Of a DNA stretch of 64,000 nt, positions 18,923-53,700 are shown piece after piece. The notes beneath the pieces were generated by a model that searched no databases, had not been told where the DNA came from, and saw only the letters and a list, made by a program, of their open reading frames with translations. Source of the stretch: Omnitrophica bacterium GWA2_41_15 (GTDB lineage: Bacteria > Omnitrophota > Gorgyraeia > Gygaellales > Profunditerraquicolaceae); the NCBI GenBank assembly GCA_919901915.1, contig CAKKQB010000013.1, forward strand, positions 64,192-128,191, given 5' to 3'. The translations under genes were made by a program, and so were the position numbers. Position 1 is the stretch's first letter. Every line of letters starts with the position of its first letter.

Positions 18923-19029
18923 TAGCGTAGAGCGTAGAGCGGATAGTAAAATTAGCATTTAGCGTAGAGCGTAGAGCGTTTAATAAAAGTCTTTTGCCTT
19001 TTCTCTACGCTCTACGCTATACGCTATCC
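18923..19029. repeat. heptamer-array palindromic repeat, family F (AGCGTAG/AGCGTAT/AGCGGAT units), between carA and carB
   Basis: tandem 7-bp units in inverted arrays around AT-rich spacers. Confidence 0.85.
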
Positions 19030-20102
19030 TTCATCATCTCTATAAATTTCCCAAATAGGTATTTCGTATCATGCGGACCAGGAGATGCCTCGGGATGAAA
19101 CTGAACAGAAAAAACAGGCAATTTCTTATGCCGCATTCCTTCCAGGGTATCGTCATTTAAATTTATATGCGTAAGCTCTATATCTTTCTTATCCAAAGAA
19201 TCTATGTCCACGCAAAAACCGTGATTTTGCGCTGTTATACAAACTTTTCCTGTCTTTAAGTCCTTAACCGGATGATTCGCGCCATGGTGGCCGAATTTAA
19301 GTTTATAGGTTTTACCGCCAAAAGCAAGCCCTAACATCTGATGGCCAAGGCAGATTCCGAATATCGGCAATTTACCAATTAAGCCTCTTGTTGTTTCTAC
19401 AACATATTTTACTGCTGATGGATCTCCCGGGCCGTTAGAAAGCAAAACCCCGTCAGGTTTAAGCTCTAAAATATCCTCTGCTCTTGTTTCAGCCGGCACA
19501 ACTACTGCTTCGCAATTATGCTCAACGAGCTCTCTTAAAATATTATATTTTACCCCGCAATCAATCACTACAACCTTATATTTAGCTTTCTTTAAACTAG
19601 GCCAGATATATTTTTTGGCACAACTTACCTCTTTAACTAAGTCTATTCCCGTCAGTCCCAATGACTTTTTTACTTTTTCCACTAAACTCTTTTCATCCAA
19701 ATCTCGCGTAGATAAAACTGCCTTCATCGCGCCTTTTTCTCTGACATGCAAGGTTAGCGCTCTTGTATCTATCCCTTCAATACCCATGATATTATTTTCT
19801 TCTAAGTATTCTCCTAATGACTGCTCCTTGCGCCAATTACTGGCAATTTTACTATATTCTTTTACCGCGAATCCTTCCAGAAACAACCCTGCTGACTCTG
19901 TATCAAGCCTGTTTACGCCATAATTACCAATTAAAGGATACGTCATCGTAACAATCTGGCCTTTATAAGAAGGGTCTGTCAAGATCTCCTGATACCCTGC
20001 CATACTGGTATTAAAAACTATCTCGCCATAGCTTTCGCCAGAAGCGCCAAAAGATTTACCCCTAAATATCATTCCGTCTTCTAATACAAGAATTGCTTCC
20101 AT
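19017..20102 (-). CDS. carA: carbamoyl-phosphate synthase small subunit (glutamine amidotransferase)
   Basis: 361 aa; CarA N-domain + class I GATase (ICLGHQ, catalytic His/Glu). Confidence 0.9.
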   Translation of the reverse strand: MEAILVLEDGMIFRGKSFGASGESYGEIVFNTSMAGYQEILTDPSYKGQIVTMTYPLIGNYGVNRLDTESAGLFLEGFAVKEYSKIASNWRKEQSLGEYLEENNIMGIEGIDTRALTLHVREKGAMKAVLSTRDLDEKSLVEKVKKSLGLTGIDLVKEVSCAKKYIWPSLKKAKYKVVVIDCGVKYNILRELVEHNCEAVVVPAETRAEDILELKPDGVLLSNGPGDPSAVKYVVETTRGLIGKLPIFGICLGHQMLGLAFGGKTYKLKFGHHGANHPVKDLKTGKVCITAQNHGFCVDIDSLDKKDIELTHINLNDDTLEGMRHKKLPVFSVQFHPEASPGPHDTKYLFGKFIEMMKDSV

Positions 20103-20107
20103 ATTTT

Positions 20108-20136
20108 TAGCGTATAGCGGATAGCGTAGAGCGTAT
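20108..20136. repeat. family F heptamer array (single arm, 4 units) between purF and carA
   Basis: agcgtat agcggat agcgtag agcgtat. Confidence 0.7.
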
Positions 20137-20157
20137 AATAGTATAAATTATTATCTT

Positions 20158-21525
20158 TTACTCCAATATGTACTTTGATATTTTTTTCGGCGGCTCTATG
20201 AGGTATTTTCCATCAAAACAAGCAGTGCAAAATTTATCTTTTGGTAAAGGCATAGCTTCCAGCATCCCTTCTTTGCTTAAATATTCAAGGCTATCCGCGC
20301 CGATAAAATCACGTATCCAATCAATGCTATGCTTAGCGGCAATAAGTTCTTTCTTGGTGGGAAAATCAATGCCATAAAAACAAGGGCTGATAAGCGGCGG
20401 GCAGCTTACCCGCATATGCACCTCTTTTGCTCCTGCCTCACGAATAGTTTTAATCCTGACCTTTGAGGTTGTGCCGCGCACAATTGAATCCTCAATAACC
20501 ACAACCTTTTTATCTTTTAAAATCGGCTTCACCGGATTAAGTTTTACCTTCACCCGGAAATCCCTCTGGGCCTGATCTGGCTGAATAAAAGTCCTGCCAA
20601 TATAATGATTACGCATCATTCCCATTTCATAAGAAATGCCTAAATGCTGCGCGTAACCTAACGCGGCGCAAGTACCGGAATCAGGGACAGGCATAACAAT
20701 ATCAGCCTTAACAGGAAATTCCCGCGCAAGCTGTTGGCCTAATTTTTTTCTTGTCTGATAAACATTCTCTTCAAAAATATTGCTGTCCGGCCGCGCGAAA
20801 TAAATGTATTCAAAAATACAAAACCCACAATCTTTTTTTATAACCGGCCTAATCGAATCTATTTTATCCTTTTGAATAAAGACAGTCTCCCCCGGCAAGA
20901 TATCCCGGACATATTGAGCGCCGATTAAATCAAATACACAGGTTTCACTGGCTAGGACATACGCCGCGCCTAATTTTCCTAAACAAAGCGGACGAAATCC
21001 TAAAGGGTCTCGTGAACCAATTAGAATATTATTAAACATTAAAACTAAGGAATACGCGCCTTTTAACTGCGCAAGCGCCCACGGGATTGCCTCTTGATAA
21101 TCTCTCTTAGGGCTATGGGCGATAAGATGCGCGATCACCTCTGAATCCATAGTCGTCTGAAACAACGCGCCCTTATCTTCTAATTGCCGCTGTAATTGAA
21201 ACGCGTTGACAATATTTCCATTATGGGCTATAGCAATATGACAGTTTTTAGTTTTTACATAAAACGGCTGGGCATTTTTTAAGGTACTGCTTCCTGTTGT
21301 GGAATAGCGCACATGACCAATCGCTAAATCGCCTTTGAGGCTAGAAATAGCTTTCTTATCAAATACCTCACTAACCAGGCCAAGGGCTTTATGGATATGG
21401 GGCTTCGAGCCATTGTGGGTAACTATGCCGGCAGATTCTTCGCCACGATGCTGAAGCGCGTATAATCCAAGGTAAGTAATTTTTGCGGCTTCTTTATGCG
21501 GATAAATCCCAAATATTCCACACAT
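20158..21525 (-). CDS. purF: amidophosphoribosyltransferase
   Basis: MCGIFGIY N-terminal nucleophile, PRTase domain, C-terminal Cys cluster. Confidence 0.9.
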   Translation of the reverse strand: MCGIFGIYPHKEAAKITYLGLYALQHRGEESAGIVTHNGSKPHIHKALGLVSEVFDKKAISSLKGDLAIGHVRYSTTGSSTLKNAQPFYVKTKNCHIAIAHNGNIVNAFQLQRQLEDKGALFQTTMDSEVIAHLIAHSPKRDYQEAIPWALAQLKGAYSLVLMFNNILIGSRDPLGFRPLCLGKLGAAYVLASETCVFDLIGAQYVRDILPGETVFIQKDKIDSIRPVIKKDCGFCIFEYIYFARPDSNIFEENVYQTRKKLGQQLAREFPVKADIVMPVPDSGTCAALGYAQHLGISYEMGMMRNHYIGRTFIQPDQAQRDFRVKVKLNPVKPILKDKKVVVIEDSIVRGTTSKVRIKTIREAGAKEVHMRVSCPPLISPCFYGIDFPTKKELIAAKHSIDWIRDFIGADSLEYLSKEGMLEAMPLPKDKFCTACFDGKYLIEPPKKISKYILE

Positions 21526-21610
21526 CTTCTATTTATAGTATAAAAAGTTATGCCTAAGCATCTCTATTATTATCTCTTTATAAATAAAAATTAAGTAGTT
21601 AATACTAAAA

Positions 21611-21772
21611 AAGTGGCATTCAGGCTGTCTCGCAATCCTTATCGTGTCATTGCGAGGGCTGATTTATCAGCCCGTGGCAATCTTTTTACGACGAAGAATG
21701 TTAAAAAGATTGCTTCGCTTCGCTCGCTCTTGACACGCATTTTATTATTGTGATACAGTCTCAATGACACGA
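21611..21772. repeat. family C palindromic repeat (TGTCATTGCGAG...CTCGCAATGACA with GAAGCAATCTTTTTAAAAAGATTGCTTC core)
   Basis: direct reading; between purF and TA pair. Confidence 0.7.
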
Positions 21773-21898
21773 AAATGAGGACTTTTCAGCGCTAACTAAC
21801 TAAGTATAACATATTCCTTTAGTCCGTCAACATAAAACGCAACTTAATTTGGGAATGATACCATAAAAGCGATAAAAAGGGGAAAAGTTAAAGTAGTT

Positions 21899-22276
21899 TC
21901 AGGCAGTTTCGATAGCTCTTGTAGGCCGAGTAATATGAACTTTGTCTTTTTTTACAATTACCATGGCATTTTCAAAGGAAGCAAACATCTTTTTTTCTAC
22001 TAAGGGGTTCAAGATGTTAAGAAGGGCATCGGGAGCGAAAGGGTTAATTCTAAAAAATACAATTCCTTTATGGGTTCCTAAGGGGAATCTATAAAGACTG
22101 GTGAAATCATTATCTAAGGTAAGAATAATTCTATTTTCTTTTCTGCAAAACGAAACTATCTCTTCATCACTAGCCTTTTGCAATCCCACATCTAAGGCTT
22201 TAATAATATCGTAGCCATTCTTACGCAAGAGTTCTACGCCACAGCTAAAGAAACAATGGTCAGCAAATAACTTCAT
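21899..22276 (-). CDS. DUF5615/Mut7-C-like PIN-fold putative toxin
   Basis: 125 aa; pairs with upstream DUF433 gene, abutting (stop/start adjacent). Confidence 0.55.
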   Translation of the reverse strand: MKLFADHCFFSCGVELLRKNGYDIIKALDVGLQKASDEEIVSFCRKENRIILTLDNDFTSLYRFPLGTHKGIVFFRINPFAPDALLNILNPLVEKKMFASFENAMVIVKKDKVHITRPTRAIETA

Positions 22277-22522
22277 TTAGTTAACCTCTTGGACAAAAAC
22301 TTCTTCGTTTTTAAAGATACAGGCAGCGTAATGAATGCAGGCTTTAATATCTTCGGGGGTAATATCAGGATAGCATTGTTTAATAATTTCCTCTATAGCC
22401 AGCCCTTGTTCAATAAGTTCCAGAACCATATAAACAGGAATTCTGGTTTCTTTAATACAGGGTTTTCCAAAGCAGATGTTGGGGTTAATAGAAATTCTAT
22501 CTTCCAGAGAATTATTTGCCAT
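22277..22522 (-). CDS. DUF433 family putative antitoxin
   Basis: Start moved to MANNSLEDR (strong AGGAGG 8 nt upstream at 22531-22536). Confidence 0.55.
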   Translation of the reverse strand: MANNSLEDRISINPNICFGKPCIKETRIPVYMVLELIEQGLAIEEIIKQCYPDITPEDIKACIHYAACIFKNEEVFVQEVN

Positions 22523-22869
22523 TGTTTCCACCTCCTGGCTGAAATATAACACGAACTTATATAAGCGTCAAGTTTTATCTCACAAAAATCAGGCCAGCCC
22601 ATATAAGTATAGATGGAAATTAGGGGAAATTAGGGACAGCGACCGTTTTTCTGTAATAAAATAGTCGCTGACCCTATTTTCCGCAATTTCGCAATTTCGA
22701 AATTATTATGAATAATATTGCCCCAAAGCAACCGCTTTCTTTTTTACCCCTTTTGGTATAGAAATCCCATAATTTATAGTGTATACTTTATTACAAAAAT
22801 ACATATCAGCTATCAGCTGTTGATGAACCGCGGTTCGTGGGATTATTATGATTAACAAAAATAACAACA

Positions 22870-22897
22870 TAGAGACGCCCCAGTGGGGCGTCTCTAC
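22870..22897. repeat. family D hairpin
   Basis: tagagacgccccagtggggcgtctctac. Confidence 0.6.
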
Positions 22898-23069
22898 AAA
22901 ATTCTTATCTTTAATTCTCTGCTTCTCTCTCCTACTTCAGCAGACAGGCTTGGCTCAGGCTCTGCCTTCTCTTTCTCAGCCTCAACCTCAGCCTTTGCTC
23001 CGCTATCTCTCCGTCAACTCCGCCAATCCCAATAATTATTTTAATTTCCTGATGGATAAGGGTAGTAAC

Positions 23070-23178
23070 GTGTCATTGCGAAGAGGAGCGCTTTTTAGCG
23101 ACGACGAAGCAATCTTTTTACGAAGTAACTCTTTAAAAGATTGCTTCACCCTCGCTAACGCTCGGGTTCGCAATGACA
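23070..23178. repeat. family C palindromic repeat, possibly with AATAATTA target-site duplication
   Basis: gtgtcattgcgaag...cgcaatgacaca; aataatta at 23031-23038 and 23196-23203. Confidence 0.65.
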
Positions 23179-23223
23179 CATTACTTTCCACAATAATTAC
23201 GAATGACTCCTAATTTGTGCTAT

Positions 23224-37700: not shown

Positions 37701-39386
37701 TGGGTCAATTGCCGGATTAGTAACCTGCGCGAATAACTGTTTAAAATAACTATAAAGCAACTGCGGCTTATCAGATAAAACCGCATGCGGGGTATCATTA
37801 CCCATTGAGCCATTCGGTTCATGAGAATCTTCCACCATAGGTTTAATGATAAATTTAAAATCCTCGCGGGTGTAACCGAAAGCTTTGAATAGAGTTAACG
37901 GATCTACTTTATTAGCGGATAGCGGATAGCTTTTATTAGCGTAGAGCGTAGAGCGTAAAGCGTAGAGCGTTTTGCTTTTCCTATCCGCTATACGCTCTAC
38001 GCTATCCGCTGATAATTTATCCAACTCTAACATATTTTTTTTAAGCCATTCTCCATACGGCTTAGAGCTTGCCATTGTTTCTTTTATTTCCTTATCTTCA
38101 ATTATGCGGCCTTCTTCTGTATCAACAAAAAGCATCTTTCCCGGTTCAAGCCTTCCTGAGATAGAAATATCATCCGGCGCGATATCTAAAACCCCTGCCT
38201 CTGAAGCCATAACTACCAAATTCTTTTTGGTCACAATATAGCGGCTAGGCCTTAAACCATTTCTGTCTAAAACCGCGCCAATCCTTACGCCATCAGTAAA
38301 GGCAATGGCTGCCGGTCCATCCCAGGACTCAATAAGACAAGTGTGGTATTTATAAAAATCTCTTACATTTTGACTCAAAAGATTATTCTGCTCCCAAGCG
38401 CTGGGTATTAACATCATCATCGCGTGAGACAAAGATCTACCCGATAAAACTAAAAGTTCAAAAACATTATCAATAGCCGCGGAATCGCTTCCCCCGGGAA
38501 CAATCACCGGAAAAATTTCCTTTAAATCCTTACCAAATAATTTACTTTTTAGTAAACCTTGGCGGGCAGTCATCCAATTTATATTCCCTTTTAAGGTATT
38601 TATCTCTCCATTATGCGCCAAGAACCGAAAAGGCTGCGCCAGATCCCAAGTGGGAAAAGTATTGGTACTATAACGGGAATGCACTAAACAAATCGCGCTT
38701 TGAAGAGCGCTGTCTTTTAAATCCAAAAAGAATTTCTCCAACTGCTCAGGCATAAGCAGGCCTTTATAAGAAAGCGTGCGGCAAGAAAGATTAGTAATAT
38801 AAAAAAATGATTTTTGTTTTAAGAATAAAGAGCGGATTTCGTTTTCTATTTTCTTGCGGATAATATAAAGCCTGCGCTCAAAATCAAGGCCATCCTTACC
38901 TATACTTAGACCTTTACCTTTACCTATAAAAACCTGCTCAATCACCGGTTGAGTAAGCTTTGCGGTTTTGCCAATCGCGGAATTATCAACCGGGACAATC
39001 CGCCAACCAAGCAAGGCCTGGCCCTCTTCTTTAATAATTCTAGCAAAGATACCCTTACATAACGCGCGCTCTTTTTTGTTAGTGGGAAGAAATACCATGC
39101 CTATCCCATAATCGCCAGAGGACGGTAAAATAAAATTTTCCTTCGCGCAGGCTTTTGCCAAAAATTCATGTGGCGCCTGAATAAGTATGCCTGCGCCATC
39201 CCCGGTCTCTGGGTCGGCGCCAGTTGCCCCGCGATGAGAAAGACGGCCTAAAACCTCCATGCCCTGTTTAATAATTTCATAAGATTTTTTGCCTTTGACA
39301 TCGCAAACAAATCCTACGCCGCAGGAATCATGTTCAAAACGGGAATCATACAACCCGTATTTTTCTAATTTCTGACGATTATCCAT
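34743..39386 (-). CDS. gltB: glutamate synthase large (alpha) subunit; carries in-frame heptamer-repeat insertion
   Basis: 1547 aa; MDNRQ..CGVGFV Ntn glutaminase, FMN and GXGXG domains; residues ~459-492 encoded by palindromic repeat at 37912-38010. Confidence 0.95.
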   Translation of the reverse strand: MDNRQKLEKYGLYDSRFEHDSCGVGFVCDVKGKKSYEIIKQGMEVLGRLSHRGATGADPETGDGAGILIQAPHEFLAKACAKENFILPSSGDYGIGMVFLPTNKKERALCKGIFARIIKEEGQALLGWRIVPVDNSAIGKTAKLTQPVIEQVFIGKGKGLSIGKDGLDFERRLYIIRKKIENEIRSLFLKQKSFFYITNLSCRTLSYKGLLMPEQLEKFFLDLKDSALQSAICLVHSRYSTNTFPTWDLAQPFRFLAHNGEINTLKGNINWMTARQGLLKSKLFGKDLKEIFPVIVPGGSDSAAIDNVFELLVLSGRSLSHAMMMLIPSAWEQNNLLSQNVRDFYKYHTCLIESWDGPAAIAFTDGVRIGAVLDRNGLRPSRYIVTKKNLVVMASEAGVLDIAPDDISISGRLEPGKMLFVDTEEGRIIEDKEIKETMASSKPYGEWLKKNMLELDKLSADSVERIADRKSKTLYALRSTLYANKSYPLSANKVDPLTLFKAFGYTREDFKFIIKPMVEDSHEPNGSMGNDTPHAVLSDKPQLLYSYFKQLFAQVTNPAIDPIREELVMSLDTYLGPQKNILDEQPRHCHKLLVKNPILTNEDLKKIHDIKKNGFKTKTISLLFNISEKNNFKKALDRICKETEAAIKEGFTFVILSDQGINKDKACLSALLATACVHQDLVRKALRTQVSIIVQSASPREVHHFALLFGYGADCINPYLAYEAAAFLIRDKEVDLDLESAIKHYIKAVDKGILKILSRMGISTLQSYRGAQIFEALGLSSEVIDKYFTGTVSRIGGIDLGIIEKEALLRHKEAFAVDGLQRPFLATGGLYQWKKDGEFHLWNPDSIAALQGAVRNNDSKKYQEFAKLINDQSSNPATLRSLFKFKEVKPIPIEEVEPVSEIVRRFVTGAMSFGSISKACHETIAIAMNRLGGRSNTGEGGEDPARFVAFPNGDSKRSAIKQVASGRFGVITNYLVNADELQIKIAQGAKPGEGGQLPGHKVSAAIAKIRYTTPGVTLISPPPHHDIYSIEDLAQLIFDLKNVNPRARVSVKLVSEIGVGTIATGVAKGHADMILISGGDGGTGASPLSSIKHAGLPWELGIAETHQTLVLNDLRSRVRLQVDGGMRTGRDVAVAALLGAEEFGFCTSVLVVLGCVMLRHCHLNNCSLGVATQDELLEKRFSGKPEYVENYFRFIAQELRQIMSSLGIVKIDDLIGRADLLEVNSKILPWKAKKIDFSRILYQPKGNGRASHSPSRKPEGSGLAPYKQDYGIDNILDRKLIELARGALENRKPIKIELSIRNHNRSVGTMLSGEVCRIFGEDGLPANTIHFKFKGVAGQSFGAWLAKGVTLELEGLTNDYVGKGMSGGKIIIYPDRQSNYKVEENIIIGNTTFYGAILGSAYIRGIAGERFCIRNSGLYAVVEGVGDHACEYMTGGRVVVIGRTGRNFAAGMSGGIAYVWDKDGDFKNKCNMEMVILEAVAEEDARTIEKLLSNHYHYTRSSSAKNILDNFTPELKKFVKVMPIEYKRVLGGRKTEEKIELVEASDG
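37912..38010. repeat. family F heptamer-array palindrome inserted in frame inside gltB
   Basis: agcggat x2 ... agcgtag x4 ... ctatccgct atacgct ctacgct atccgct; translates LSADSVERIADRKSKTLYALRSTLYANKSYPLSANK. Confidence 0.85.
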
Positions 39387-39391: not shown

Positions 39392-39558
39392 TAGCGTATA
39401 GCGTATAGCGTAGAGCGTAGAGCGTATAGCGTATAGCGTAGAACGTAGAGCGTAGAGCGGATAGCGGATAGTAAAAATCTATGTTTTAACTATATGTTAT
39501 CCGCTATTCCTACACGCTTTCTTTCCTATCCGCTAAACGCTATACGCTCTACGCTAAT
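39392..39558. repeat. largest family F locus (11-unit left arm + degenerate right arm) between glnN and gltB
   Basis: direct reading of tandem heptamers. Confidence 0.85.
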
Positions 39559-41803: not shown

Positions 41804-41850
41804 GTGTATAGCGGATAGTTTTACTTTTTTTTATCCACTAACCTACCCTT
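41804..41850. repeat. family F-derived short hairpin with T9 loop between amt and glnN
   Basis: gtgtatagcggatag-T9-atccact. Confidence 0.6.
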
Positions 41851-44661: not shown

Positions 44662-44741
44662 TAGCGGATAGCGTATAGCGTATATATAGGTTTTACTATC
44701 CGCTATACGCTCTACGCTATACGCTATACGCTTGATATTTT
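44662..44741. repeat. family F palindrome between nfnB and nfnA
   Basis: agcggat agcgtat agcgtat / atccgct atacgct ctacgct atacgct atacgct. Confidence 0.85.
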
Positions 44742-45569
44742 AAGATTACAGATATGCTTTTCTTTATCTAAATAAACACTGTTCCTCTTTGTCAATTCAT
44801 CCCAATTTACTTGAGTTCCGTCAAATTCCGGGCCATCAACGCAAGCAAATTTCGTCTTACCTGCCACAGTTACACGGCAACAGCCGCACATTCCAGTAGC
44901 ATCTACCATCAAAGGATTCAAAGAAACAATGGTTTTAACTTTAAAATCGCTAGCAACCTCGCAAACTCTTCTCATCATCGGTATCGGGCCGACTGCGTAA
45001 ATTAGCGAATAGCGGATAGCGGATAGTGAATAGCTTAATACCTCCTGCAAAATATCAGTAACAAAGCCTTTCCTGCCGCAAGAACCGTCATCAGTGGTTA
45101 TATAAAGCTCATCGCAAAACACCTTTAGCTCCTGCTCCAAAATCAATAAATCATTGTTTCTTGCGCCCAGTATAGTAGTAGTATGGTTTCCCGCTTCTTT
45201 CAAAGCCTTGGCAACCGGATAAATCTCCGCAATTCCTACGCCTCCGCCTACAAGAATTAAATTTCCAAAATTTTTAATCTCAGTAGCATGCCCCAGGGGC
45301 CCGGCCAAAGCGTATAATGAATCACCAACCTCCATCTTGCCCAGCAACTTAGTAGTTAAGCCAACCTCTTGAAAGATCAAGGTAATTGTGCCTATGTCAG
45401 AATTTTTATCTACTATAGTTAGAGGTATCCTTTCGCCTTCCTCGCATACCATAAGAACAACAAATTGGCCCGGTCTTACTTTCCTGGCAATAAGCGGGCT
45501 TAAGATTTCAAAGCGCTTAATTGTTACGTCTTGCGTTTGTGCTAAAATTTCTTTTTTGATTATCCGCAT
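44724..45569 (-). CDS. nfnA: NfnA/SudB (PyrK-like FAD/[2Fe-2S] subunit); in-frame heptamer-repeat insertion
   Basis: 281 aa; C-terminal CGCC...C 2Fe-2S; segment LSYSLSAIRYSLI encoded by repeat 45003-45036. Confidence 0.75.
   Translation of the reverse strand: MRIIKKEILAQTQDVTIKRFEILSPLIARKVRPGQFVVLMVCEEGERIPLTIVDKNSDIGTITLIFQEVGLTTKLLGKMEVGDSLYALAGPLGHATEIKNFGNLILVGGGVGIAEIYPVAKALKEAGNHTTTILGARNNDLLILEQELKVFCDELYITTDDGSCGRKGFVTDILQEVLSYSLSAIRYSLIYAVGPIPMMRRVCEVASDFKVKTIVSLNPLMVDATGMCGCCRVTVAGKTKFACVDGPEFDGTQVNWDELTKRNSVYLDKEKHICNLKISSV
45003..45036. repeat. family F single arm inserted in frame in nfnA
   Basis: agcgaat agcggat agcggat agtgaat. Confidence 0.75.
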
Positions 45570-45740: not shown

Positions 45741-46478
45741 TTACTTTACATCACTGTAATCATTCTTATTTTTTAATTCGGCAGTTAAAATAATTGCTTC
45801 GGCGATTTCGCGCATGGACTTACGTTTATCCATACTCTGTTTTTGAATTAATCTGTAGGCCTCGGATGGTTTTACATCTGCCTCCTGGGAAAGTATATCC
45901 TTTGCCCGTTCAATCAGCTTGCGGGTAACTAAGGCTTCTTCAGCGCTATGCGCCCGCAAAGATAATTCAGCATTTTCAATGGCCATAGCCGTCTGATTGG
46001 CCAAAGTTGTAAGAAGACTTATCTCGGATTTTGTAAACTTATGTCTTTTTGAGGTATAACAATTAAGCACGCCGATTACTGTCCCTCTTACTGCCAAAGG
46101 GACACTAGCCAAAGAACAAAGCCCTTCTTTTTTAGCGATGTCCCTATTTAAGTAATCCGCGTCTTCCCTGACATCCAAAACAACCATTGATTTATTATCC
46201 CGCGCAACCGCTCCCGCAATCCCCTCTCCTAATTTTATATTGGGTTTTTTATTGTAGCTTTGAGAAATAGACTGGGTCGCGCGTACAACTAATTCTTTCC
46301 TCTCGGAATCAAGAAGCATCAAAGAAGAGATTTTTAAATTCATCACCTGGGCAGTAACCTCAACAACTAAACGAAGAAGCTCGTCCAGATACAAGCCTGA
46401 AGTAATCAGGTTCGCGACCTTAGAAATCGCCTCAATCTGCTTTGTATAAACCTGATAACCCTTTACCTTTTTAATCAT
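45741..46478 (-). CDS. GAF-ANTAR RNA-binding antitermination regulator
   Basis: 245 aa; N-terminal GAF; C-terminal ANTAR (EAYRLIQKQSMDKRKSMREIAEAII). Confidence 0.8.
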   Translation of the reverse strand: MIKKVKGYQVYTKQIEAISKVANLITSGLYLDELLRLVVEVTAQVMNLKISSLMLLDSERKELVVRATQSISQSYNKKPNIKLGEGIAGAVARDNKSMVVLDVREDADYLNRDIAKKEGLCSLASVPLAVRGTVIGVLNCYTSKRHKFTKSEISLLTTLANQTAMAIENAELSLRAHSAEEALVTRKLIERAKDILSQEADVKPSEAYRLIQKQSMDKRKSMREIAEAIILTAELKNKNDYSDVK

Positions 46479-46484
46479 AATTAG

Positions 46485-47642
46485 TTAACGATTCCTCTTC
46501 AAAAAACTTTCTATTCTACTTAACGCCTCTTTCAAATTATCAAAACTTGCGGCATAGGATATGCGAATATTGTCCGCGAACTGAGCGCCAAAAGCTGTGC
46601 CCGGAATAACCGCGACCTTTTCCTCCTTTAAAAGCTGTTGGCAAAAATCCATCGCCTTAAGACCGCTGCTTTTTATGCTGGGAAAAGCATAGAAAGCACC
46701 CTGCGGCTTTGAACACTCAAGGCCGATGCGATTCAGCTCACTAACCACAAACTCTCTTCTTCGTTTATATTCACGCTTCATCTCTTCCACTGATTTTCTG
46801 CCTGAATGCATCGCTTCAGAAGCAGCTATTTGAGAAGTAATAGACACGCACATAATGGTATACTGATGAATCTTAGTCATAGCCGCGATAATCTCTTTTG
46901 GGCCGCAAGCAAAGCCCACACGCCAGCCAGTCATCGCGTAACTTTTGGAAAAACCATCAAGATAAACAGTCGAATTTTTTGCTTGAGGCAATGTCGCGAA
47001 AGGCGTATGAGTAAAATCATACGTCAAATCTCCATAAACCTCATCGCTGATACAAAGCAGATTATACTTCAACGCGATCTTCTTAATTTCCTCTAATTCT
47101 TTTTTAGTATAAGATACGCCCGTAGGATTAGTAGGGTAGTTCAATATAATTGCTTTAGCTTTCTTGTCTATGCTCTTCTCCAAGCTTTCCGGTGTAAGCT
47201 TAAAATTGTTTTTACTTGTATCGATATAAACAGGTATACCGCCGGCTAATTCACTAACCGGGCCGTAAGAAACATAACATGGCTCGGGTATAATTATTTT
47301 ATCACCCGGATTTATAATGGAACGCAAAACTAAATCCAAAGCCTCGCTTACCCCAACAGTAATCAAAATCTCTTCATCCGGACAATAATCCAAACCGTAT
47401 TTATTTTTTAGGTATTGTGAAATGGTCAGCCTTAATTTATACAAGCCCTTATTTGAGGTGTAAGAGGTAAAACCCTCTTCTAATGAAGCTATCCCTGCTT
47501 CGCGTATCTGCCAAGGCGTAACAAAATCCGGCTCACCCACGCCAAGGGAAATTACATCCTTCATGCCTAATACTAAATCAAAAAACGCGCGAATTCCGGA
47601 GGGATGCATTTGCTTAACTTTTTCGGAAACCAAATCTTTCAT
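46485..47642 (-). CDS. class I/II PLP-dependent aminotransferase (aspartate aminotransferase-like)
   Basis: 385 aa; NPTG, SKSYAMTGWRVGF PLP-lysine region. Confidence 0.85.
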   Translation of the reverse strand: MKDLVSEKVKQMHPSGIRAFFDLVLGMKDVISLGVGEPDFVTPWQIREAGIASLEEGFTSYTSNKGLYKLRLTISQYLKNKYGLDYCPDEEILITVGVSEALDLVLRSIINPGDKIIIPEPCYVSYGPVSELAGGIPVYIDTSKNNFKLTPESLEKSIDKKAKAIILNYPTNPTGVSYTKKELEEIKKIALKYNLLCISDEVYGDLTYDFTHTPFATLPQAKNSTVYLDGFSKSYAMTGWRVGFACGPKEIIAAMTKIHQYTIMCVSITSQIAASEAMHSGRKSVEEMKREYKRRREFVVSELNRIGLECSKPQGAFYAFPSIKSSGLKAMDFCQQLLKEEKVAVIPGTAFGAQFADNIRISYAASFDNLKEALSRIESFLKRNR

Positions 47643-47650: not shown

Positions 47651-47718
47651 GCGTTTAGCGGATAGCGTTTAGCGTATAGTTTTTTTTATCCGCTATACGC
47701 TCTACGCTATACGCTATT
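47651..47718. repeat. family F palindrome between lrp and aminotransferase
   Basis: arms around T8 loop. Confidence 0.85.
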
Positions 47719-48202: not shown

Positions 48203-48225
48203 TACCTCGCTCCTTTCAGTCGCTC

Positions 48226-48288
48226 GGAGAGAACAGATTACAGAGTACGGATTACTGAAAGATTTTTCTGTGCTCTGTTCTCTGTGCT
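48226..48288. repeat. family G heptamer palindrome (CAGAGAA/CAGAGCA units) forming nadE 3' end
   Basis: gagagaacagattacagag ... ctgtgctctgttctctgtgc. Confidence 0.8.
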
Positions 48289-49008
48289 TTCTTTAATATA
48301 GCATATTTTCGGCCCTTCCCTCTTATGCTCTGATTTCTTTACCATATTTTTTACTTTATTTACTTTCTCTTTTGATAAGACCTGTTTCTTCTTGTTTTCC
48401 AAACGCTCCAATATGTCATCTAACTCGTTATAGGTAAGCCCCATTTCTCCTTCATCGGTCTGGCCTGGCCAGAGTCCGGCAGTAGGCGGCTTAGTAACAA
48501 TGGATTCGGGAATCTTTAATTCTTTAGCCAATGCCCTTACCTGTTTTTTTAATAAACCGCCGATTGGCAAAATATCCGTTGCCCCGTCGCCATACTTGGT
48601 AAAATAACCGACTTCAATTTCAGATCTATTTCCTGTGCCGCAGACAAGATAATTAAGTTTATTGGCAAAATAATATAAAACTAACATCCTTAAGCGCGGT
48701 TTTAAATTTGCCAAAGCTAACGGCCCCGCTTTGGGTAAAATTTTCATGACATTGTCGTAAATATCAGCCAAATCAATTAATTTTATTTTTATCCCAAATT
48801 TCCTTGCCACTAACTTTGCGTCATCTAAATCCTGTTTTTGACTATGACAGCCAAGAAACAAAACCAAAAGTTTTTGTTTACCCAGCGCTTCCCTGGCTAA
48901 AACAGCTACCACCGCGGAATCTATCCCCCCGCTTAAACCCATAACAATACCCTTTGCCTTAGCCGCTTTGACCTGCTGCCTAATCCAAGAAATAATTTTC
49001 TTTTTCAT
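48238..49008 (-). CDS. nadE: NH3-dependent NAD+ synthetase; C-terminus supplied by heptamer repeat
   Basis: GLSGGIDSAVVAVLA PP-loop; last 16 aa STENRAQKNLSVIRTL encoded by repeat 48226-48288. Confidence 0.85.
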   Translation of the reverse strand: MKKKIISWIRQQVKAAKAKGIVMGLSGGIDSAVVAVLAREALGKQKLLVLFLGCHSQKQDLDDAKLVARKFGIKIKLIDLADIYDNVMKILPKAGPLALANLKPRLRMLVLYYFANKLNYLVCGTGNRSEIEVGYFTKYGDGATDILPIGGLLKKQVRALAKELKIPESIVTKPPTAGLWPGQTDEGEMGLTYNELDDILERLENKKKQVLSKEKVNKVKNMVKKSEHKREGPKICYIKESTENRAQKNLSVIRTL

Positions 49009-49107
49009 ATTTTATTTAAAAATATCACCTAAATAAACCGGGACCGAGAACCGCCCCTGTTTCTTGCCCCTGCTTCTCACAATATTGCACTTTTAAGCAA
49101 TGCTCGT

Positions 49108-49815
49108 TTACGCGGCTTCGCGCAAAAAATTTGTACCCCTGCAGGCGCCGACGCAAACTCCGCAAACATATTGATCTGCTAATCTCTGCTTTTGAAACTC
49201 CTTTAACTTCTCAAAACACTTGATATGATCAAATTCTGTTGCTTCCTCTTTTATTGCTCCAGAGGGACATATTTTAGCACAAAGCATACAACTACCGCAA
49301 TCTTTTTTTACCGGCTTATCTATTTTCAAAGGCATATTGGTAAGTATGGTAACTAAGCGAAATTGACTTCCTAAGGTTTCGTTAACCAATAAATTATTCC
49401 TGCCAATCCAGCCTAAACCAGCTAAGACACCTATCTTTTTATGCGAAAGATGCGCCTTTTGGTTCTGCCAATCTAAAATTATTGAAGCAGGAATTGGCAA
49501 GGCAAGAAAACTTTTTTTCTGTATGTAATTACATATTTTAAGGCTACTCTGATCCAAAAACGCGTTGACTACGCGATAATGATGAAAATAAAGACGGGTA
49601 GGACTATCAACAATTTCTTCTAAAATACTCCCGGATAACCTTACGCCCAGGCAAACCGCGCTATCTAATTTATCAATGGCCTTGCCAGATAAAAGAAAAT
49701 CCTTTTTTATCTCTTTGATATCCGCGACACCAAATAAATCTATACCTAAATCCTGACAGAATTTCTTTAATTGCGAATAATTTTTATTTTTGCTTACACT
49801 CTCTTGCATATACAA
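49108..49815 (-). CDS. epoxyqueuosine reductase (QueG)-like 4Fe-4S protein, short form
   Basis: 235 aa; GLGWIGRNNLLVN...LGSQFRLVTILT like QueG core; CGSCMLCAKICPSGAI ferredoxin motif. Confidence 0.5.
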   Translation of the reverse strand: MYMQESVSKNKNYSQLKKFCQDLGIDLFGVADIKEIKKDFLLSGKAIDKLDSAVCLGVRLSGSILEEIVDSPTRLYFHHYRVVNAFLDQSSLKICNYIQKKSFLALPIPASIILDWQNQKAHLSHKKIGVLAGLGWIGRNNLLVNETLGSQFRLVTILTNMPLKIDKPVKKDCGSCMLCAKICPSGAIKEEATEFDHIKCFEKLKEFQKQRLADQYVCGVCVGACRGTNFLREAA

Positions 49816-49832
49816 TTATCAAAAACCACCCT

Positions 49833-49901
49833 GTCATTCTGAGGCCCTGAAGGGGCCGAAGAATCTCGACGCTAATAAGATCCTTCGCTTCGCTCAGGAT
49901 G
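49833..49901. repeat. family B internal hairpin module without TIRs, overlapping mnmG 3' end
   Basis: gtcattctgaggccctgaaggggccgaagaatctcgacgctaataagatccttcgcttcgctcaggatgac. Confidence 0.7.
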
Positions 49902-51773
49902 ACAAAAATGAGATATTTTCTTCAAATACACCATTAAAATAGAAATGGCCGCGGGCGTTACTCCGGAAATTCGCGAAGCCTGGCCCAGATTTAATGGCCT
50001 AAACTTACTTAGCTTTTCTTTAACCTCTCTCGAAAGGCTATTGATAGCAGTATAATCCAACCCCTCCGGAAGCCTGATTTTTTCTAAATTTTTAAATCTC
50101 TCCACATCCTTTAATTGCCTCCGGATAAATCCCGCGTATTTTACCTCAATTTCAATCTGACGTAAAGCTAATTCCGGAAAATTATTGAAAAAATCCTCCT
50201 GGCACAAGTTTTTTAATTTCTCGATGTCAATCTGCGGCCTTTTTAAGAGCTCCTCAAGAGTTACGGATTTCTTTAAAGGAGAACTACTATATTGGGTCAG
50301 CTTATCATTGACCTCCCGCGTTGGCTTAAGACGCGTATTTCTTATACAATTAAAACCTTCGGTTATCGCGTCTTTTTTCCTTTGTAATTTTTCATAATCC
50401 TTGCTATTTACCAATCCTAAATCATACCCTATTTTTCCAAGGCGTAAATCCGCGTTATCTTCGCGCAAGATCAAGCGATATTCCACGCGCGAAGTAAACA
50501 TCCGGTATGGCTCAAGAGTTCCCTTAATAGTTAAATCATCTATCAATACGCCAATATAGCTGGTCGCGCGATCCAAAATCAATGCCTCCTTAGATTTTAC
50601 TCTTAAGGCCGCGTTTATTCCCGCGATTAAACCCTGGGCTGCTGCTTCCTCATAACCGGTAGTGCCATTAATTTGTCCGGCAAAATATAAATTCTTAATC
50701 AATTTTGTTTCTAAAGAAAGCTTTAGCTGGGTAGGCTCTGCCACAGTATGCTCTATTCCATAACCAAAACGAATAATTTTAGCATTCTCTAATCCTTCAA
50801 TTGAATGTATTAAGTCCGATTGCGCGTCTTCAGGCAAACTTGTGGACAGGCCATTCGGATACACCTCATCCGTAGACAAACCTTCTAGCTCCAGAAACAC
50901 CTGGTGCCTTTCTTTATCAGAAAATTTAACAATTTTGTCTTCAACTGACGGACAATAGCGGACTCCCGTTGCCTTGATAAGGCCGGTATAGAGCGGAGAA
51001 CGGCATAAATTATCAAGAATAATTTTATGAGTTCTTTTATTTGTATAGGTTATATGGCAGGGAACTTGTTTTTGTATTAACTTTTCACTTGAAAAAGAAA
51101 ACGCTCGCGCCGGATTATCCCCTTCCTGAACTATAAGCTTAGAAAAATCTATTGTATTCTTATCTAAGCGGCTGCAGGTCCCGGTTTTAAATCTAAGCAA
51201 ATAGAAACCTAACTCCTTTAGGTTATTTGTCAGGCCTATCGCCGCTGGCTCATTGATGCGCCCCGCGCTAAAAGACTTAAGGCCAACATAGATTAAGCCA
51301 TCTAAAAACGTGCCCGGACAGATAACCACGGTTTTGGATAAAATCTCCTCGTCCTTACTCGTAACCACCCCCATCACTATATTATCAGAAACTACCAATC
51401 TTTTTACCTCCGCCTCTTTGATAAAAAGATTTTCCTGTTTCTCCAATATTTCCTTCATATACTGGCTGTATATTTCCATATCCACCTGCGCGCGGGATGA
51501 TTGCACAGCCGGCCCCTTAGAGGCATTAAGAATTCTAAACTGAATTCCGCTAAAATCAGCGGCCTTCGCCATTTGCCCGCCCAAGGCATCAATCTCTTTT
51601 ACAAGCTGGCCCTTGCCTACTCCGCCAATCGCCGGATTACAGCTCATCAAGCCTATTGTTTTCACGCTCAAAGTAATAATAAGCGTCTTGCAGCCCATCC
51701 GCGCTGAAGCCAACCCTGCCTCAATTCCAGCATGGCCGGCGCCAATAATTATAACGTCGTAATTTTGAGTCAT
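49872..51773 (-). CDS. mnmG: tRNA uridine-5-carboxymethylaminomethyl modification enzyme MnmG; C-terminus runs into MITE
   Basis: 633 aa; IIIGAGHAG FAD motif; terminal HFCHPERSEGSY encoded by repeat 49872-49901. Confidence 0.95.
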   Translation of the reverse strand: MTQNYDVIIIGAGHAGIEAGLASARMGCKTLIITLSVKTIGLMSCNPAIGGVGKGQLVKEIDALGGQMAKAADFSGIQFRILNASKGPAVQSSRAQVDMEIYSQYMKEILEKQENLFIKEAEVKRLVVSDNIVMGVVTSKDEEILSKTVVICPGTFLDGLIYVGLKSFSAGRINEPAAIGLTNNLKELGFYLLRFKTGTCSRLDKNTIDFSKLIVQEGDNPARAFSFSSEKLIQKQVPCHITYTNKRTHKIILDNLCRSPLYTGLIKATGVRYCPSVEDKIVKFSDKERHQVFLELEGLSTDEVYPNGLSTSLPEDAQSDLIHSIEGLENAKIIRFGYGIEHTVAEPTQLKLSLETKLIKNLYFAGQINGTTGYEEAAAQGLIAGINAALRVKSKEALILDRATSYIGVLIDDLTIKGTLEPYRMFTSRVEYRLILREDNADLRLGKIGYDLGLVNSKDYEKLQRKKDAITEGFNCIRNTRLKPTREVNDKLTQYSSSPLKKSVTLEELLKRPQIDIEKLKNLCQEDFFNNFPELALRQIEIEVKYAGFIRRQLKDVERFKNLEKIRLPEGLDYTAINSLSREVKEKLSKFRPLNLGQASRISGVTPAAISILMVYLKKISHFCHPERSEGSY

Positions 51774-51823
51774 TCGTAAATATTATGAAGTAATTATCGT
51801 AAATATTTAATAGACAACCTGAT

Positions 51824-51987
51824 AACGAAAGTTCCTGTTTGCGCACGAAATTTTTTGCCATGCGCTACGGTTTACTCCTCGTTTCCGCAGTGACTTACCA
51901 AAAAAAACAAGTGCTCCAACTCGTCGTAAATCCTTGCGCACATTTGGCAAAAAAATTTCTAATTGTGCGCAAACAGGAACTTTCGTT
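51824..51987. repeat. 164-bp element bounded by 23-bp perfect inverted repeats (AACGAAAGTTCCTGTTTGCGCAC) adjacent to MITE A copy 2
   Basis: arms at 51824-51846 and 51965-51987. Confidence 0.65.
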
Positions 51988-52171
51988 GAGTCTGTTGCGA
52001 AATGCCATTTTTCGTCATTCCGGCGAAAGCCGGAATCCAGAACTCTTTGATTTCAATAGGCTTATGGATACCGGCGACCGAGGGCGAAATGCCCGAGGAA
52101 GTGTCAGAGCCCAACTGGGCTCGACCTTTCGCCGGTATGACGGTTTTAATGTATTTCGCAACAGTCCCTCG
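51988..52171. mobile_element. MITE family A, second copy
   Basis: ~95% identical to 8013-8218 including TIRs. Confidence 0.8.
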
Positions 52172-52280
52172 TTATCTGACAACCATCATTTTTTATCACA
52201 TTATTTACGAAAGAACCATAATTTTCCATATAAATTAAAAAAAATGCTATAATTTAGATTCTTTCGTATTTAAAATAATC

Positions 52281-52310
52281 CGTAGGGGCGGTTCGTGAAC
52301 CGCCCTTACG
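52281..52310 (-). terminator. 30-bp perfect palindrome CGTAGGGGCGGTTCGTGAACCGCCCTTACG downstream of apgM (terminator or repeat family)
   Basis: GC-rich 12-bp stem; minus strand followed by ATTATTTTAAAT. Confidence 0.5.
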
Positions 52311-52353
52311 ACGAAACATAAATCATTGAAACGGTTGATTGGCGCGTTTAATA

Positions 52354-53637
52354 TTATTCTCTCGCGCTTTTCACGAGGAGAGGCATGATATCCCGGCCAA
52401 GAAGCTCGCCAAGCGAACCAAGCGATGCCGCTTTTTCAGAAAAACTTAAAGAACCGTCGGGCTTAATGTTTCCACCCGAGATAAGCAAAGGAACGGGGTC
52501 AGAGGAATGGGCTTTTATGACGCAAACAGTAGAATGATCCGCGGTTACAGCAATAATCGTATTGTTTATATCTATTTTTGGCAAAAAGCTTGAAAAAAAA
52601 TACTTATCTATCGCTTCAATAATGTCTTTCTTTTTATTAAAATCTCCGTCGTGCGCTGGCTCATCAGGGCCTTTGATATGCACATAAATACCATCATATT
52701 TCTTCATTGATTCCAAAGCCACCTTAGCCCAAACAGGATAATCCACATCTAAATGCCCGCTTGCATCAGGAACATCAATTATATCCATACCTGTTAATAA
52801 GGCAATCCCTTTTTCTACAGGCATCTGCACAAATGAACCAAACTTTACATCGTAAAAACTCTGAATAGGGGGAAATTTAGGGATGTGGTCCCCCGCGTCA
52901 CGCGATAAAATCACATTGCCGGGCATCTTATTTTCAGAAATCCTCTTTTTATTAACTAAGGAATCATTTAAAACTTTATGGGATTTCTGGGTAAATTCAT
53001 TTAAAAGCGCGGCCGCCTCCTTTGACTCGGGTGAATTCTCGTATCCGGGCATAGGAATTGACTCAACCACAAAATTCTCAAATTTCTCCTTGGCAACACC
53101 AAACACACCCTCCCTGTCATACGCGGGATCAGTATTAGTAATCCATCCGGATAATCTAGAGCGAACCCCTCTTATCACCAAAATTCCGCGATGCCCAATA
53201 GTACTTTTAAATTCAAAAGTCGCGCTTGAAAGCGTAACCTTTGAATTAATTTCTTTTGATAAAGCGACAGCCTCTTCAGTGGTAAGATTTCTTCCCACGC
53301 GCCTATCCTTAATTGTCAAGCCATCTGGCGCCACTGTGGCAAAATTAACCCGGAAAGCCACATCACCATCATTTACAACCAACCCTTCCGCGAAAGATTC
53401 TAAGGGCCCTCTGCCTGTATAATATTTGTGCGCGTCATAGCCTAAAAGACTGATTACCGCGATATCCGACTCCGGAGCAATTCCCTTAGCAACAGGATAA
53501 ACAATACCGGTTCTGCCTTTTTGAGCAAGACGATCAAGATTAGGCGTTAAAGCCGCCTCTAAAGGAGTTTTATTACCTAATTCCTTAACCGGTAAATCAC
53601 CTAAACCATCGAGAACTATATAAATAATTTTTTTCAT
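52354..53637 (-). CDS. apgM: archaeal-type cofactor-independent phosphoglycerate mutase
   Basis: 427 aa; MKKIIYIVLDGLGD metalloenzyme N-terminus. Confidence 0.85.
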   Translation of the reverse strand: MKKIIYIVLDGLGDLPVKELGNKTPLEAALTPNLDRLAQKGRTGIVYPVAKGIAPESDIAVISLLGYDAHKYYTGRGPLESFAEGLVVNDGDVAFRVNFATVAPDGLTIKDRRVGRNLTTEEAVALSKEINSKVTLSSATFEFKSTIGHRGILVIRGVRSRLSGWITNTDPAYDREGVFGVAKEKFENFVVESIPMPGYENSPESKEAAALLNEFTQKSHKVLNDSLVNKKRISENKMPGNVILSRDAGDHIPKFPPIQSFYDVKFGSFVQMPVEKGIALLTGMDIIDVPDASGHLDVDYPVWAKVALESMKKYDGIYVHIKGPDEPAHDGDFNKKKDIIEAIDKYFFSSFLPKIDINNTIIAVTADHSTVCVIKAHSSDPVPLLISGGNIKPDGSLSFSEKAASLGSLGELLGRDIMPLLVKSARE

Positions 53638-53644
53638 ATTTTAT

Positions 53645-53700
53645 TAGCGCGGATAGCGTTTAATTTTTTCTATACGCTATACGCTCTACGCTATACGCTA
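53645..53700. repeat. family F palindrome between nrdJ and apgM
   Basis: agcgcggat agcgttt ... atacgct atacgct ctacgct atacgct. Confidence 0.85.

Follow-up and report, generated by a model that had tools for sequence, protein, structure and literature searches.

The DNA analysed here, a stretch of 64,000 nt referred to as the window (positions 64,192 to 128,191 of contig CAKKQB010000013.1 of Omnitrophica bacterium GWA2_41_15), carries at nine loci tandem arrays of a 7-nt unit of the form AGCGKAK. The source is an Omnitrophota groundwater metagenome that was assembled from short reads. All genes called across at least 71 kb of a 95-kb contig containing the window (L206, L001, L204 and L205) lie on one strand, the minus strand, which is an extreme gene-strand bias. 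The AGCGKAK loci sit in a block of glutamine and nitrogen metabolism genes in which transcription runs from glnN through gltB and gltD to pyrG and, past a number of unrelated genes, on to purF, carA and carB; amt and nadE lie upstream of glnN. A preliminary description made from the sequence had judged the lineage to be non-cyanobacterial, and the homologues of CarA and GltB (72-80% identical) agree with this: the source records give the name Candidatus Omnitrophota or Omnitrophica both for the CarA homologues, which are 77-80% identical, and for a GltB fragment that matched at 72-74% identity over about half of the query.

Arrays of period 7 were found at all nine of the loci listed in the preliminary description, both with Tandem Repeats Finder and in a regular-expression scan. 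The two-unit pattern AGCGKAKAGCGKAK, with at most one mismatch, gave 48 matches where 0.25 were expected, and none of 100 dinucleotide-preserving shuffles reached 48. The single-unit expression AGCG[TG]A[TG] matched 79 units on the two strands, 55 of which were within eight of the nine loci; at 41804 there was only one exact match. The 66 AGCG-headed units of the nine loci comprised AGCGTAT (20), AGCGTAG (19), AGCGGAT (17), AGCGTTT (6) and four singletons. The arrays qualify as members of the tandem-repeat class, i.e. they have a unit of 5-11 nt and occur above chance frequency. The elements range in size from 29 to 167 bp; seven of them lie between co-directional genes and two inside genes, namely gltB and nfnA, as had been described.

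The preliminary description gave all nine loci one architecture, i.e. 3-11 direct copies of the unit, a spacer that is often T7-T9, and then the reverse-complement units. Six loci are clear inverted arrays folding as hairpins, those at 18923 and 37912 being composites, but two (20108 and 45003) are single-armed and one (41804) is degenerate. Arms of up to 11 units do occur, but there are only two left-arm units at 53645 and only one or two recognisable units per arm at 41804. A clean T run (T6-T8) forms the loop only at 41804, 47651 and 53645, the remaining loops being AT-rich and mixed. In the regular-expression scan the plus-strand arm preceded the minus-strand arm at every two-armed locus.

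The largest element (39392-39558, 167 bp; predicted folding energy dG -71 kcal/mol, z -6.55) separates glnN from gltB, has 11 units in one arm and ends 5 nt before the gltB ATG at 39386. The 68-bp hairpin at 47651-47718 (dG -30.1, z -6.0) fills the junction between lrp and an aminotransferase gene: it starts right after the lrp TAA, and the aminotransferase ATG at 47642 is 6 nt from the predicted stem end and 8 nt from the end of the array. The hairpin at 44662-44741 (dG -32.3, z -4.9) contains the nfnA stop codon (44724-44726) and lies between nfnA and nfnB, which are transcribed in that order and not, as first described, in the reverse one. Both composites consist of two direct arrays followed by one inverted array. 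The one between carA and carB (18923-19029; dG -41.6, z -4.75) contains the carA stop codon (19017-19019) and ends 6 nt before the carB ATG at 18916, while the one inside gltB (37912-38010, 99 bp; dG -46.6, z -6.2) is in frame. The degenerate short hairpin between amt and glnN (41804-41850; dG -13.7, z -3.5) is followed by a Shine-Dalgarno sequence, AAGGAGG, and the glnN ATG. The weak hairpin between nrdJ and apgM (53645-53700), in which one of the two left-arm units has a 2-nt insertion (AGCGCGGAT), ends 7 nt before the apgM ATG at 53637. Neither of the single arms has a reverse-complement partner: the four units between purF and carA (20108-20136) end 5 nt before the carA ATG at 20102, and the ∼4.7 units inside nfnA (45003-45036) are in frame and encode LSYSLSAIRYSL at a surface-loop position.

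A second family of period-7 arrays, ACAGAGN/NCTCTGT, is also present in the window. At 61007-61096, ACAGAGN units, a loop and NCTCTGT units form a hairpin (dG -50.4, z -9.7) that is directly flanked by a TAA (61097-61099) and an ATG (61005-61003). At 48228-48300 an array (48267-48288) with a partial inverse arm forms the C-terminal tail of nadE. Four further families, TTCTGTT, AGCTGAT, CAGCCGT and TTACCAC, occur on the contig outside the window.

Low-complexity repeats in a short-read metagenome assembly could be artefacts of assembly or sequencing. We give this explanation almost no credence, because a second, independent assembly of the same population (ERZ1292640, L203) is identical over 21 kb except for one single-nucleotide polymorphism (SNP), which indicates that the arrays are not assembly artefacts; the contig name in this second assembly, Hain_H43, suggests the Hainich as the groundwater site. 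In addition, the proteins are found on three contigs including an NCBI record, the reading frames of essential genes stay open across the arrays, and the same design is seen in many unrelated metagenome-assembled genomes (MAGs). With only one SNP, L203 gave no information on copy-number variation between strains, and no other close strains were present in the protein clusters.

At the orthologous junctions of related genomes the arrays were often missing or replaced. Between lrp and the aminotransferase gene the spacer is only 2 nt (TAAGCATG) in L124 and L125, and is 19-25 nt long and free of arrays in L126, L129, L130 and L133. The same junction is filled by the 68-bp AGCGKAK element in the window, by an AGTTCAN hairpin in L123, by an AAAAGTN hairpin in L131 and by an AAATGAC/AAATCCC hairpin in L132, and in L127 it holds four direct AAGTCAC units. 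The L122 spacer contains a 440-nt insert (4401-4855) which, when translated by eye, looks like it encodes a small protein of the four-helix-bundle ('23S rRNA intervening sequence') type. The nrdJ|apgM spacer, which has the AGCGKAK hairpin in the window, shrinks to 1 nt in L127, measures 35 nt in L129 and is occupied by a GGACGTN composite in L131. Finally, carA and carB overlap (ATGCCTAA) in L237, and are separated by a 107-bp composite in the window, by an AAAAGTN hairpin in L239 and by an unrelated palindrome resembling repetitive extragenic palindromic (REP) sequences in L238. In L238, which is free of heptamer arrays, this palindromic repeat (GGGACAGTTCTC...GAGAACCGTCCC) is found at both pyrG|carA and carA|carB (9960-10010 and 11098-11245). 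The lrp|aminotransferase junction tolerates quite different inserts, and pyrG|carA and carA|carB have been colonised by other hairpin elements.

Each genome has a dominant unit that is present at several loci, i.e. GGACGTN in L131, RGTCACN in L127 and AGCGKAK in the window; AGCGKAK is also dominant on two contigs (L071 and L114) of one Lake Pavin Omnitrophota MAG. Position, 7-nt period and hairpin design thus recur between genomes while the unit sequence does not. Since orthologous junctions are empty or differently filled, the arrays are best read as gains at formerly tight junctions, i.e. at junctions that overlap or are 1-2 nt apart in relatives, and the invaded junctions were probably translationally coupled beforehand. 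The presence/absence differences that the preliminary description had put forward as a sign of mobility therefore exist (empty carA/carB in L237, lrp in L124/L125 and nrdJ in L127, with other units elsewhere).

The same data bear on the possibility that the arrays act at the DNA level as operators or iterons, with heptads that are bound by a polymerising protein and a unit that is matched to the regulator of each genome. The omega ribbon-helix-helix repressor of pSM19035 polymerises along heptad sites of this kind. The strict 7-bp period in direct and inverted orientation, the genome-specific units and the clustering of the AGCGKAK loci in the purF, carAB, glnN, gltB, amt and nadE block would fit such a role, and heptanucleotide arrays in Geobacter have been annotated as putative (global) regulator sites (PMC2700814). 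However, the arrays are found within operons and coding regions, where they even give stop codons, and not at promoter-like sites, for which reason heptad operators of the omega or ribbon-helix-helix type were rejected. The units of relatives adjoin unrelated housekeeping genes (apgM, gidA and fer4), the orthologous sites are empty or unit-switched, unlike those of a conserved regulon, and no candidate binding protein is encoded beside the arrays. Moreover, loop-separated and always convergent arms fit hairpins, whereas binding to duplex DNA needs neither. That the arrays lie within operons and genes and that relatives differ in their units therefore both argue against a DNA iteron, and we consider protein-binding arrays very unlikely.

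The arrays have altered the ends of genes. The carA gene ends GAT AGC GTA TAG, giving a C-terminus ..MMKDSV, where CarA of related Omnitrophota typically ends ..MMKKYA or in a close variant e.g. ..KKHA, and nfnA likewise terminates in an array-encoded AGC GTA TAG. Whatever the frame, three units of an AGCGTAG array suffice to bring up a TAG, so that an invaded gene terminates at once. The ACAGAGN family has no stop triplet, and nadE consequently gains an extra tail: its last ∼18 residues (..ESTENRAQKNLSVIRTL) are array-encoded, and the alignment with the nadE products of relatives breaks off at residues 236-238 of 256. Some CarA proteins of other Omnitrophota also have tails that look heptamer-encoded, e.g. 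KSAKCKAKSAKL and EKSKVKSKKVKPKVKS, with confirmation at the DNA level in L239. Inside gltB, the 99-bp element has a single open frame, from which most of SADSVERIADRKSKTLYALRSTLYANKSYPLSAN is translated as part of the linker from the amidotransferase to the central domain, an insert of ∼24 residues that is absent from homologues at 51-72% identity (alignment A1); at the same gltB linker L202 has an independent in-frame (NCACGAA)x6 array. The array in nfnA adds 3-4 residues to a loop, as compared with the solved NfnI and NfnA structures 5jca_S and 4ylf_A.

Start and stop codons have a recurrent arrangement around the stems. At filled junctions the stem begins, with its 5′ foot, at the stop codon or includes it there, and at five junctions the ATG follows 1-8 nt past the 3′ foot. 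Measured through the base of the stem, the stop-to-start distance is 1-17 nt at the lrp, nrdJ, carA and 61007 loci, where no Shine-Dalgarno sequence is visible. The empty state of the three comparable junctions is an overlapping or adjacent stop and start without a Shine-Dalgarno sequence, which is the classic layout of translational coupling. For annotation it matters that starts, stops and C-terminal tails beside heptamer arrays are easily miscalled. The carB start in the list of open reading frames (ORFs), 18958, falls inside the array, and the conserved MPKRTDIKK start is at 18916. Similarly, the called start of a 446-residue ORF (59776-61116) at 61116 overlaps the upstream gene and reads through the 90-nt ACAGAGN hairpin; the ATG at 61005, 1 nt after the stem, is more likely to be the real start.

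The sense-RNA hairpins at the AGCGKAK loci had predicted dG values of -14 to -71 kcal/mol and z scores of -3.5 to -6.6, which bears out the long imperfect hairpins of the preliminary description except at nrdJ|apgM, the sole weak fold (53640-53706, z -1.7). Stable predicted hairpins inside operons, between co-directional genes and with stop and start codons at the stem foot, could be selected cis-acting mRNA elements that, like REP sequences or the intercistronic sites of phage T7, protect against 3′ exonucleases, provide RNase III sites or enforce coupling. Such elements could also explain why five of the downstream genes have no visible Shine-Dalgarno sequence and why several relatives are occupied at the same junctions, and a part in translation has been proposed for the TAACTGA arrays that lie just upstream of starts in Beggiatoaceae (PMC4679880). 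When sense and antisense folding were compared for 17 hairpins, however, the sense strand was clearly more stable in ∼5 and the antisense strand in ∼5, the other ∼7 differing by <2 kcal/mol, and a strong sense-strand G-U bias was seen at locus 61007 only. With neither strand folding consistently better, the hairpins lack the G-U signature that selection on the RNA would leave, and such selection was rejected. The same junctions are also array-free in close relatives, copies occur within coding sequence as well, and the arms are mismatched at the variable positions. An Rfam covariance-model search of the window gave no match to an array at the gathering score, the sole match being a tRNA at 6695-6768. 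On balance, a selected mRNA element seems to us an unlikely explanation.

From 37 to 55 kb, no terminator or promoter was predicted at a heptamer hairpin on the minus strand, i.e. in the sense of the mRNA. Terminator-like sites were called nearby at 43121-43092 and at 39587-39564, the latter being a separate small hairpin near the glnN|gltB element, and two weak terminator-like calls on the plus (antisense) strand fell inside arrays (37955-37975 and 53646-53660). With no Rfam match in the window and no call in the sense of the genes at 37-55 kb, a known RNA family, an intrinsic terminator and a promoter were all rejected as identities for the arrays.

Comparison of the nine loci with one another revealed shared multi-unit sequences. 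An exact 20-mer, ATAGCGTAGAGCGTATAGCG, which spans three unit variants, is present at four loci (37986, 44701-44720, 47691-47710 and 53675-53694), in every case on the minus strand. When the elements are read as transcribed, the units leading up to the loop come in the order TAT-TAG-TAT-GAT, or in one close to it, at four loci, and the loop that follows is A-rich; the unit adjoining the loop is a GGAT unit in the window as well as in other Omnitrophota MAGs. Beyond the loop, the second arm varies from 1 to 11 units and is no mirror image of the first. Homology between loci ends at the array borders, save for 19 nt at the element/start junction that are identical for carA and gltB, and the loci are therefore not the remnants of one duplicated segment. 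As multi-unit haplotypes are shared, independent slippage of local sequence is insufficient as an explanation; the occurrence of the exact 20-mer at four loci points to copying between loci followed by slippage, and later slippage would account for the unequal, non-mirrored arms. The two arms are mismatched at the variable unit positions 5-7. Long perfect palindromes are known to be unstable, and the persistence of these mismatches may reflect such instability.

An alternative to copying is that each array was born in place by local slippage and fold-back template switching, with no transfer between loci, the likeness of the units being due to a mutational preference. Heptamers are over-represented in, and the commonest long simple repeats of, many bacteria, and polymerase slippage has been proposed as the process behind them (Mrazek 2007, as summarised in PMC4679880 and PMC4692102). 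In some cases an array begins within a local stop codon (e.g. TAAGTCGCAAGTCATAAGTC in L127 and TGACATAAATGAC in L132), L127 has several different units at neighbouring loci, and the gltB array of L202 resembles an expansion of native codons. However, birth in place does not readily account for an exact 20-mer over three unit variants at four loci in one orientation, nor for a conserved unit order with the loop-side GGAT unit here and in other Omnitrophota MAGs, and nine loci in 35 kb with one unit family would not be expected from separate local seeds. We therefore regard purely local origins as quite unlikely.

To see how specific the arrays are to this period and this clade, we counted arrays of at least three copies at ≥85% identity for periods 4-12. 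For period 7 the density per 100 kb was 39 arrays in the window, against 12.8 in twelve loci of relatives (those with an aminotransferase 71-79% identical) and 1.1 in 68 distant loci, with periods 5, 6, 8 and 9 at background level in all three sets. A reverse-complement partner within 130 nt was present for 72-74% of the arrays in the window and relatives, compared with 11% in the loci of other phyla. The arrays are not confined to the window, as the same hairpin design is found on other Omnitrophota MAG contigs (L027, L071 and L114), nor are they universal in the clade, as there were no period-7 arrays in 21-kb regions of the Omnitrophota relatives L237 and L238. In L012 (Phycisphaerae) only one arm matches, ending in the loop-side GGAT unit. 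A scan of genome contigs for (AGCGTAG)x3 gave at least 120 loci in many phyla, and among the loci listed only L027, L071 and L114, all from Omnitrophota, have the hairpin design in its details. In viral contigs, scanned as a control, AGCGTAG was matched at 5 loci and three other heptamers at 5, 7 and 13. Since unrelated genomes contain about one period-7 array per 100 kb, matches in many phyla are expected for any heptamer, and with other heptamers giving similar counts the idea of a mobile element shared across phyla was dropped.

The order of the arms was strongly biased. Among the 31 inverted period-7 pairs in all of the DNA fetched, the purine-rich arm came first in 27 and the pyrimidine-rich arm in one, the other three being neutral; the pairs in the window are all convergent with the purine arm first. 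The purine-first order reads alike on both strands and holds for about seven independent unit families. The sole pyrimidine-first pair, ATTTTGG... / ...CCAAAAT, is in a Planctomycetota MAG (L015, 3643-3737). Stop triplets were commoner in the first arm in 18 pairs and in the second arm in three. Possible causes of the arm order are the stop codons in the first arm, co-transcriptional folding that hides a pyrimidine-rich segment able to load Rho, and a strand bias of fold-back synthesis. A candidate rule is that a pyrimidine arm transcribed first would be a naked Rho loading site, so that only purine-first arrays survive. We also considered whether the heptamer hairpins are made or spread by a dedicated and hitherto undescribed process, such as a trans-acting mobiliser or fold-back synthesis by a polymerase that inherently moves in steps of 7 nt, with purine-first order as a general rule. 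We hold this to be a rather unlikely prospect; if it were true, the Omnitrophota junctions, whose orthologous sites may be empty or filled and whose units differ by genome, would be a comparative system for asking why bacterial tandem repeats favour 7 nt.

The reading that we favour, with a probability of roughly 0.55, is that the elements are dispersed palindromic heptamer microsatellites which are tolerated because they fold out of the mRNA. Each element would consist of non-coding tandem 7-nt units in the form of a purine-rich arm, an AT-rich loop and a complementary pyrimidine-rich arm. The hairpin block would be copied to new junctions, the candidate routes being gene conversion, template switching guided by microhomology and some trans-acting mobiliser, and its arms would then expand, contract and drift by replication slippage. 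Copies would persist only where they do little harm. At a junction, the folded insert would bring the upstream stop and the downstream start to the foot of the stem, so that coupling by termination and reinitiation could continue, and the terminating ribosome would open the base of the stem that covers the start codon. At the end of an invaded gene, TAG in the purine-rich 5′ arm would supply an immediate stop, and within genes the survivors would be in-frame, stop-free versions in linkers or loops. If there is any benefit, such as protection of mRNA 3′ ends, RNase III processing or the enforcement of coupling, it would be a secondary one. The preliminary description offered three roles: of these, the RNA element is without positive support and the iteron is disfavoured by placement and change of unit, leaving a selfish or neutral slippage element as the best fit. 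Its reading of the arrays as a heptamer family similar to REP sequences and to the short tandemly repeated repetitive (STRR) sequences of cyanobacteria is supported.

Several points weigh against the microsatellite reading. It gives no cause for the period of 7 or for the purine-rich arm coming first, and as to a mechanism of copying, Pfam matches revealed no transposase, HUH, reverse transcriptase or integrase domains in 71 kb of contig, inspection of the flanks and of filled versus empty sites revealed no consistent target-site duplication (the sole flank duplication seen was ATAAAA, to either side of the nrdJ|apgM element), and the elements have no fixed length. Some of the 'empty' sites could be clean deletions, and that the folded insert could preserve coupling is an argument from geometry. 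On the contig, AGCGKAK arrays were confined to the part from 18.9 to 53.7 kb, and we infer their genome-wide spread in the host from other MAGs. Among candidate agents and classes, a neighbouring mobiliser gene was rejected, there being none in 71 kb, and a RAYT (Y1 HUH transposase) gene was likewise absent from the Pfam matches at contig positions 1-71 kb. A MITE (a miniature transposable element with inverted repeats) was also rejected as the class of the arrays, given their variable length and the lack of a consistent flanking duplication.

The window contains other repeats in addition to the heptamer arrays. Direct arrays of a 10-nt unit, TTTATCCGTG, whose core ATCCGTG is similar to the heptamer ATCCGCT, occur without an inverted partner directly after stop codons in a pilus / type II secretion gene cluster (8210-8255, 13986-14046, 14692-14734 and 15178-15198). 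A perfect 464-bp tandem duplication (14714-15598; 1.9 copies, 100% identical) is also present, which carries two pilin-like (N_methyl) genes of 134 residues each and has each of its copies bordered by the 10-mer array. A 177-bp dispersed repeat, 94% identical between its copies at 8025-8201 and ∼51958-52134 and containing the palindrome GGATTCCGGCTTTCGCCGGAATGAC, is a MITE- or REP-like element distinct from the heptamer arrays; one copy is in the unusually long (580 nt) apgM|gidA spacer and a related copy is upstream of nrdJ (lacI|nrdJ spacer, 56069-56338).

Two of the genes beside arrays have features of their own. In the amt leader (43175-43092, minus strand) a promoter close to consensus (TTGACA-16-TATGAT, preceded by a TG) comes before a strong hairpin of terminator type, and a GAF-ANTAR regulator is encoded 2.5 kb upstream of it (45741-46478); ammonium transport may be controlled by ANTAR-dependent antitermination in this leader. 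The carB gene (17279-18916) encodes the N-terminal half only, i.e. domains D1-D3 in ∼545 residues, and the next gene is a type II secretion F gene; carB is also half-size in L238, and has the full 1082 residues in L237.

A literature search found no prior description of heptamer repeats in Omnitrophota. Heptamer tandem repeats as such have reportedly been known since 1990, without their origin and function being understood. The precedent named in the preliminary description, the STRR heptamers of heterocystous cyanobacteria, is said to have been described by Mazel et al. in 1990; PMC4692102 cites that work but does not use the acronym. The likeness is real, in that both are tandem heptanucleotides with several unit families per genome and many dispersed, mostly intergenic loci that have no known function, but the STRR1-3 units belong to heterocystous cyanobacteria and AGCGKAK to Omnitrophota, and other systems are closer. 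REP sequences commonly have a GTAG head, and AGCGTAG contains GTAG. To some extent like the arrays, REP, BIME and REPIN sequences are short, palindromic, genome-specific repeats between co-directional genes that are able to form hairpins in mRNA (PMC3333891); unlike the arrays, they are single palindromes of 20-40 nt that are extragenic and RAYT-dependent, whereas here the elements are built of tandem 7-mers and two of the nine are intragenic.

Convergent GGGAATC pairs in Xanthomonas (Rehm et al. 2015, PMC4692102) are a closer precedent than the STRRs. They too consist of tandem 7-nt units in mostly intergenic, convergent arrays on opposite strands that are able to form stem-loops, are always convergent with the purine-rich unit first, and have no known function. 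There are 70-75 such pairs per genome, and their positions are conserved between species while array length varies (PMC4692102). They differ in that their units are G-tracts forming G-quadruplexes, whereas AGCGKAK has no G runs (none of three or more G in AGCGTAT, AGCGTAG or AGCGGAT), and the Omnitrophota arrays are in another phylum, change their unit between related genomes and have invaded gene ends and linkers. The GGGGAYT arrays of Nostoc are reported to form only a few inverted pairs (PMC4692102), in contrast to the high proportion of partnered arrays found here.

Geobacter metallireducens, also closer than the STRRs, has dispersed sets of four or five tandem heptanucleotides between and within genes, i.e. 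GGACCGG x4 at 49 sites and MTYCTGA x5, the putative regulator sites being mostly paired (PMC2700814); unlike those of Omnitrophota, they have a fixed copy number and are annotated as putative regulatory RNAs or regulator sites. The TAACTGA arrays of marine Beggiatoaceae, some Cyanobacteria and Bacteroidetes (MacGregor 2015, PMC4679880) resemble ours in ending a few nt upstream of starts without a Shine-Dalgarno sequence, in occasional copies inside ORFs and in their patchy phylogenetic spread, but they comprise 169 direct sets and one inverted set of a single fixed unit, whereas here most arrays have inverted partners and the unit varies with the genome.

The Omnitrophota arrays therefore belong to the heptamer-repeat phenomenon known from cyanobacteria, Xanthomonas and Geobacter, the phylum and the units being new, and Omnitrophota are a candidate for an additional phylum with a very high density of heptamer arrays. 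What they add is a comparison of empty and filled sites, turnover of the unit, the rewriting of gene ends and a rule of arm order. The comparison is a clean one, the same junctions being empty, overlapping or filled in genomes that are 70-80% identical at the protein level; the rewriting extends from donated stop codons and added C-terminal tails to ∼24 residues inserted into GltB; and the arm-order rule, which these arrays share with the Xanthomonas pairs, is independent of strand.

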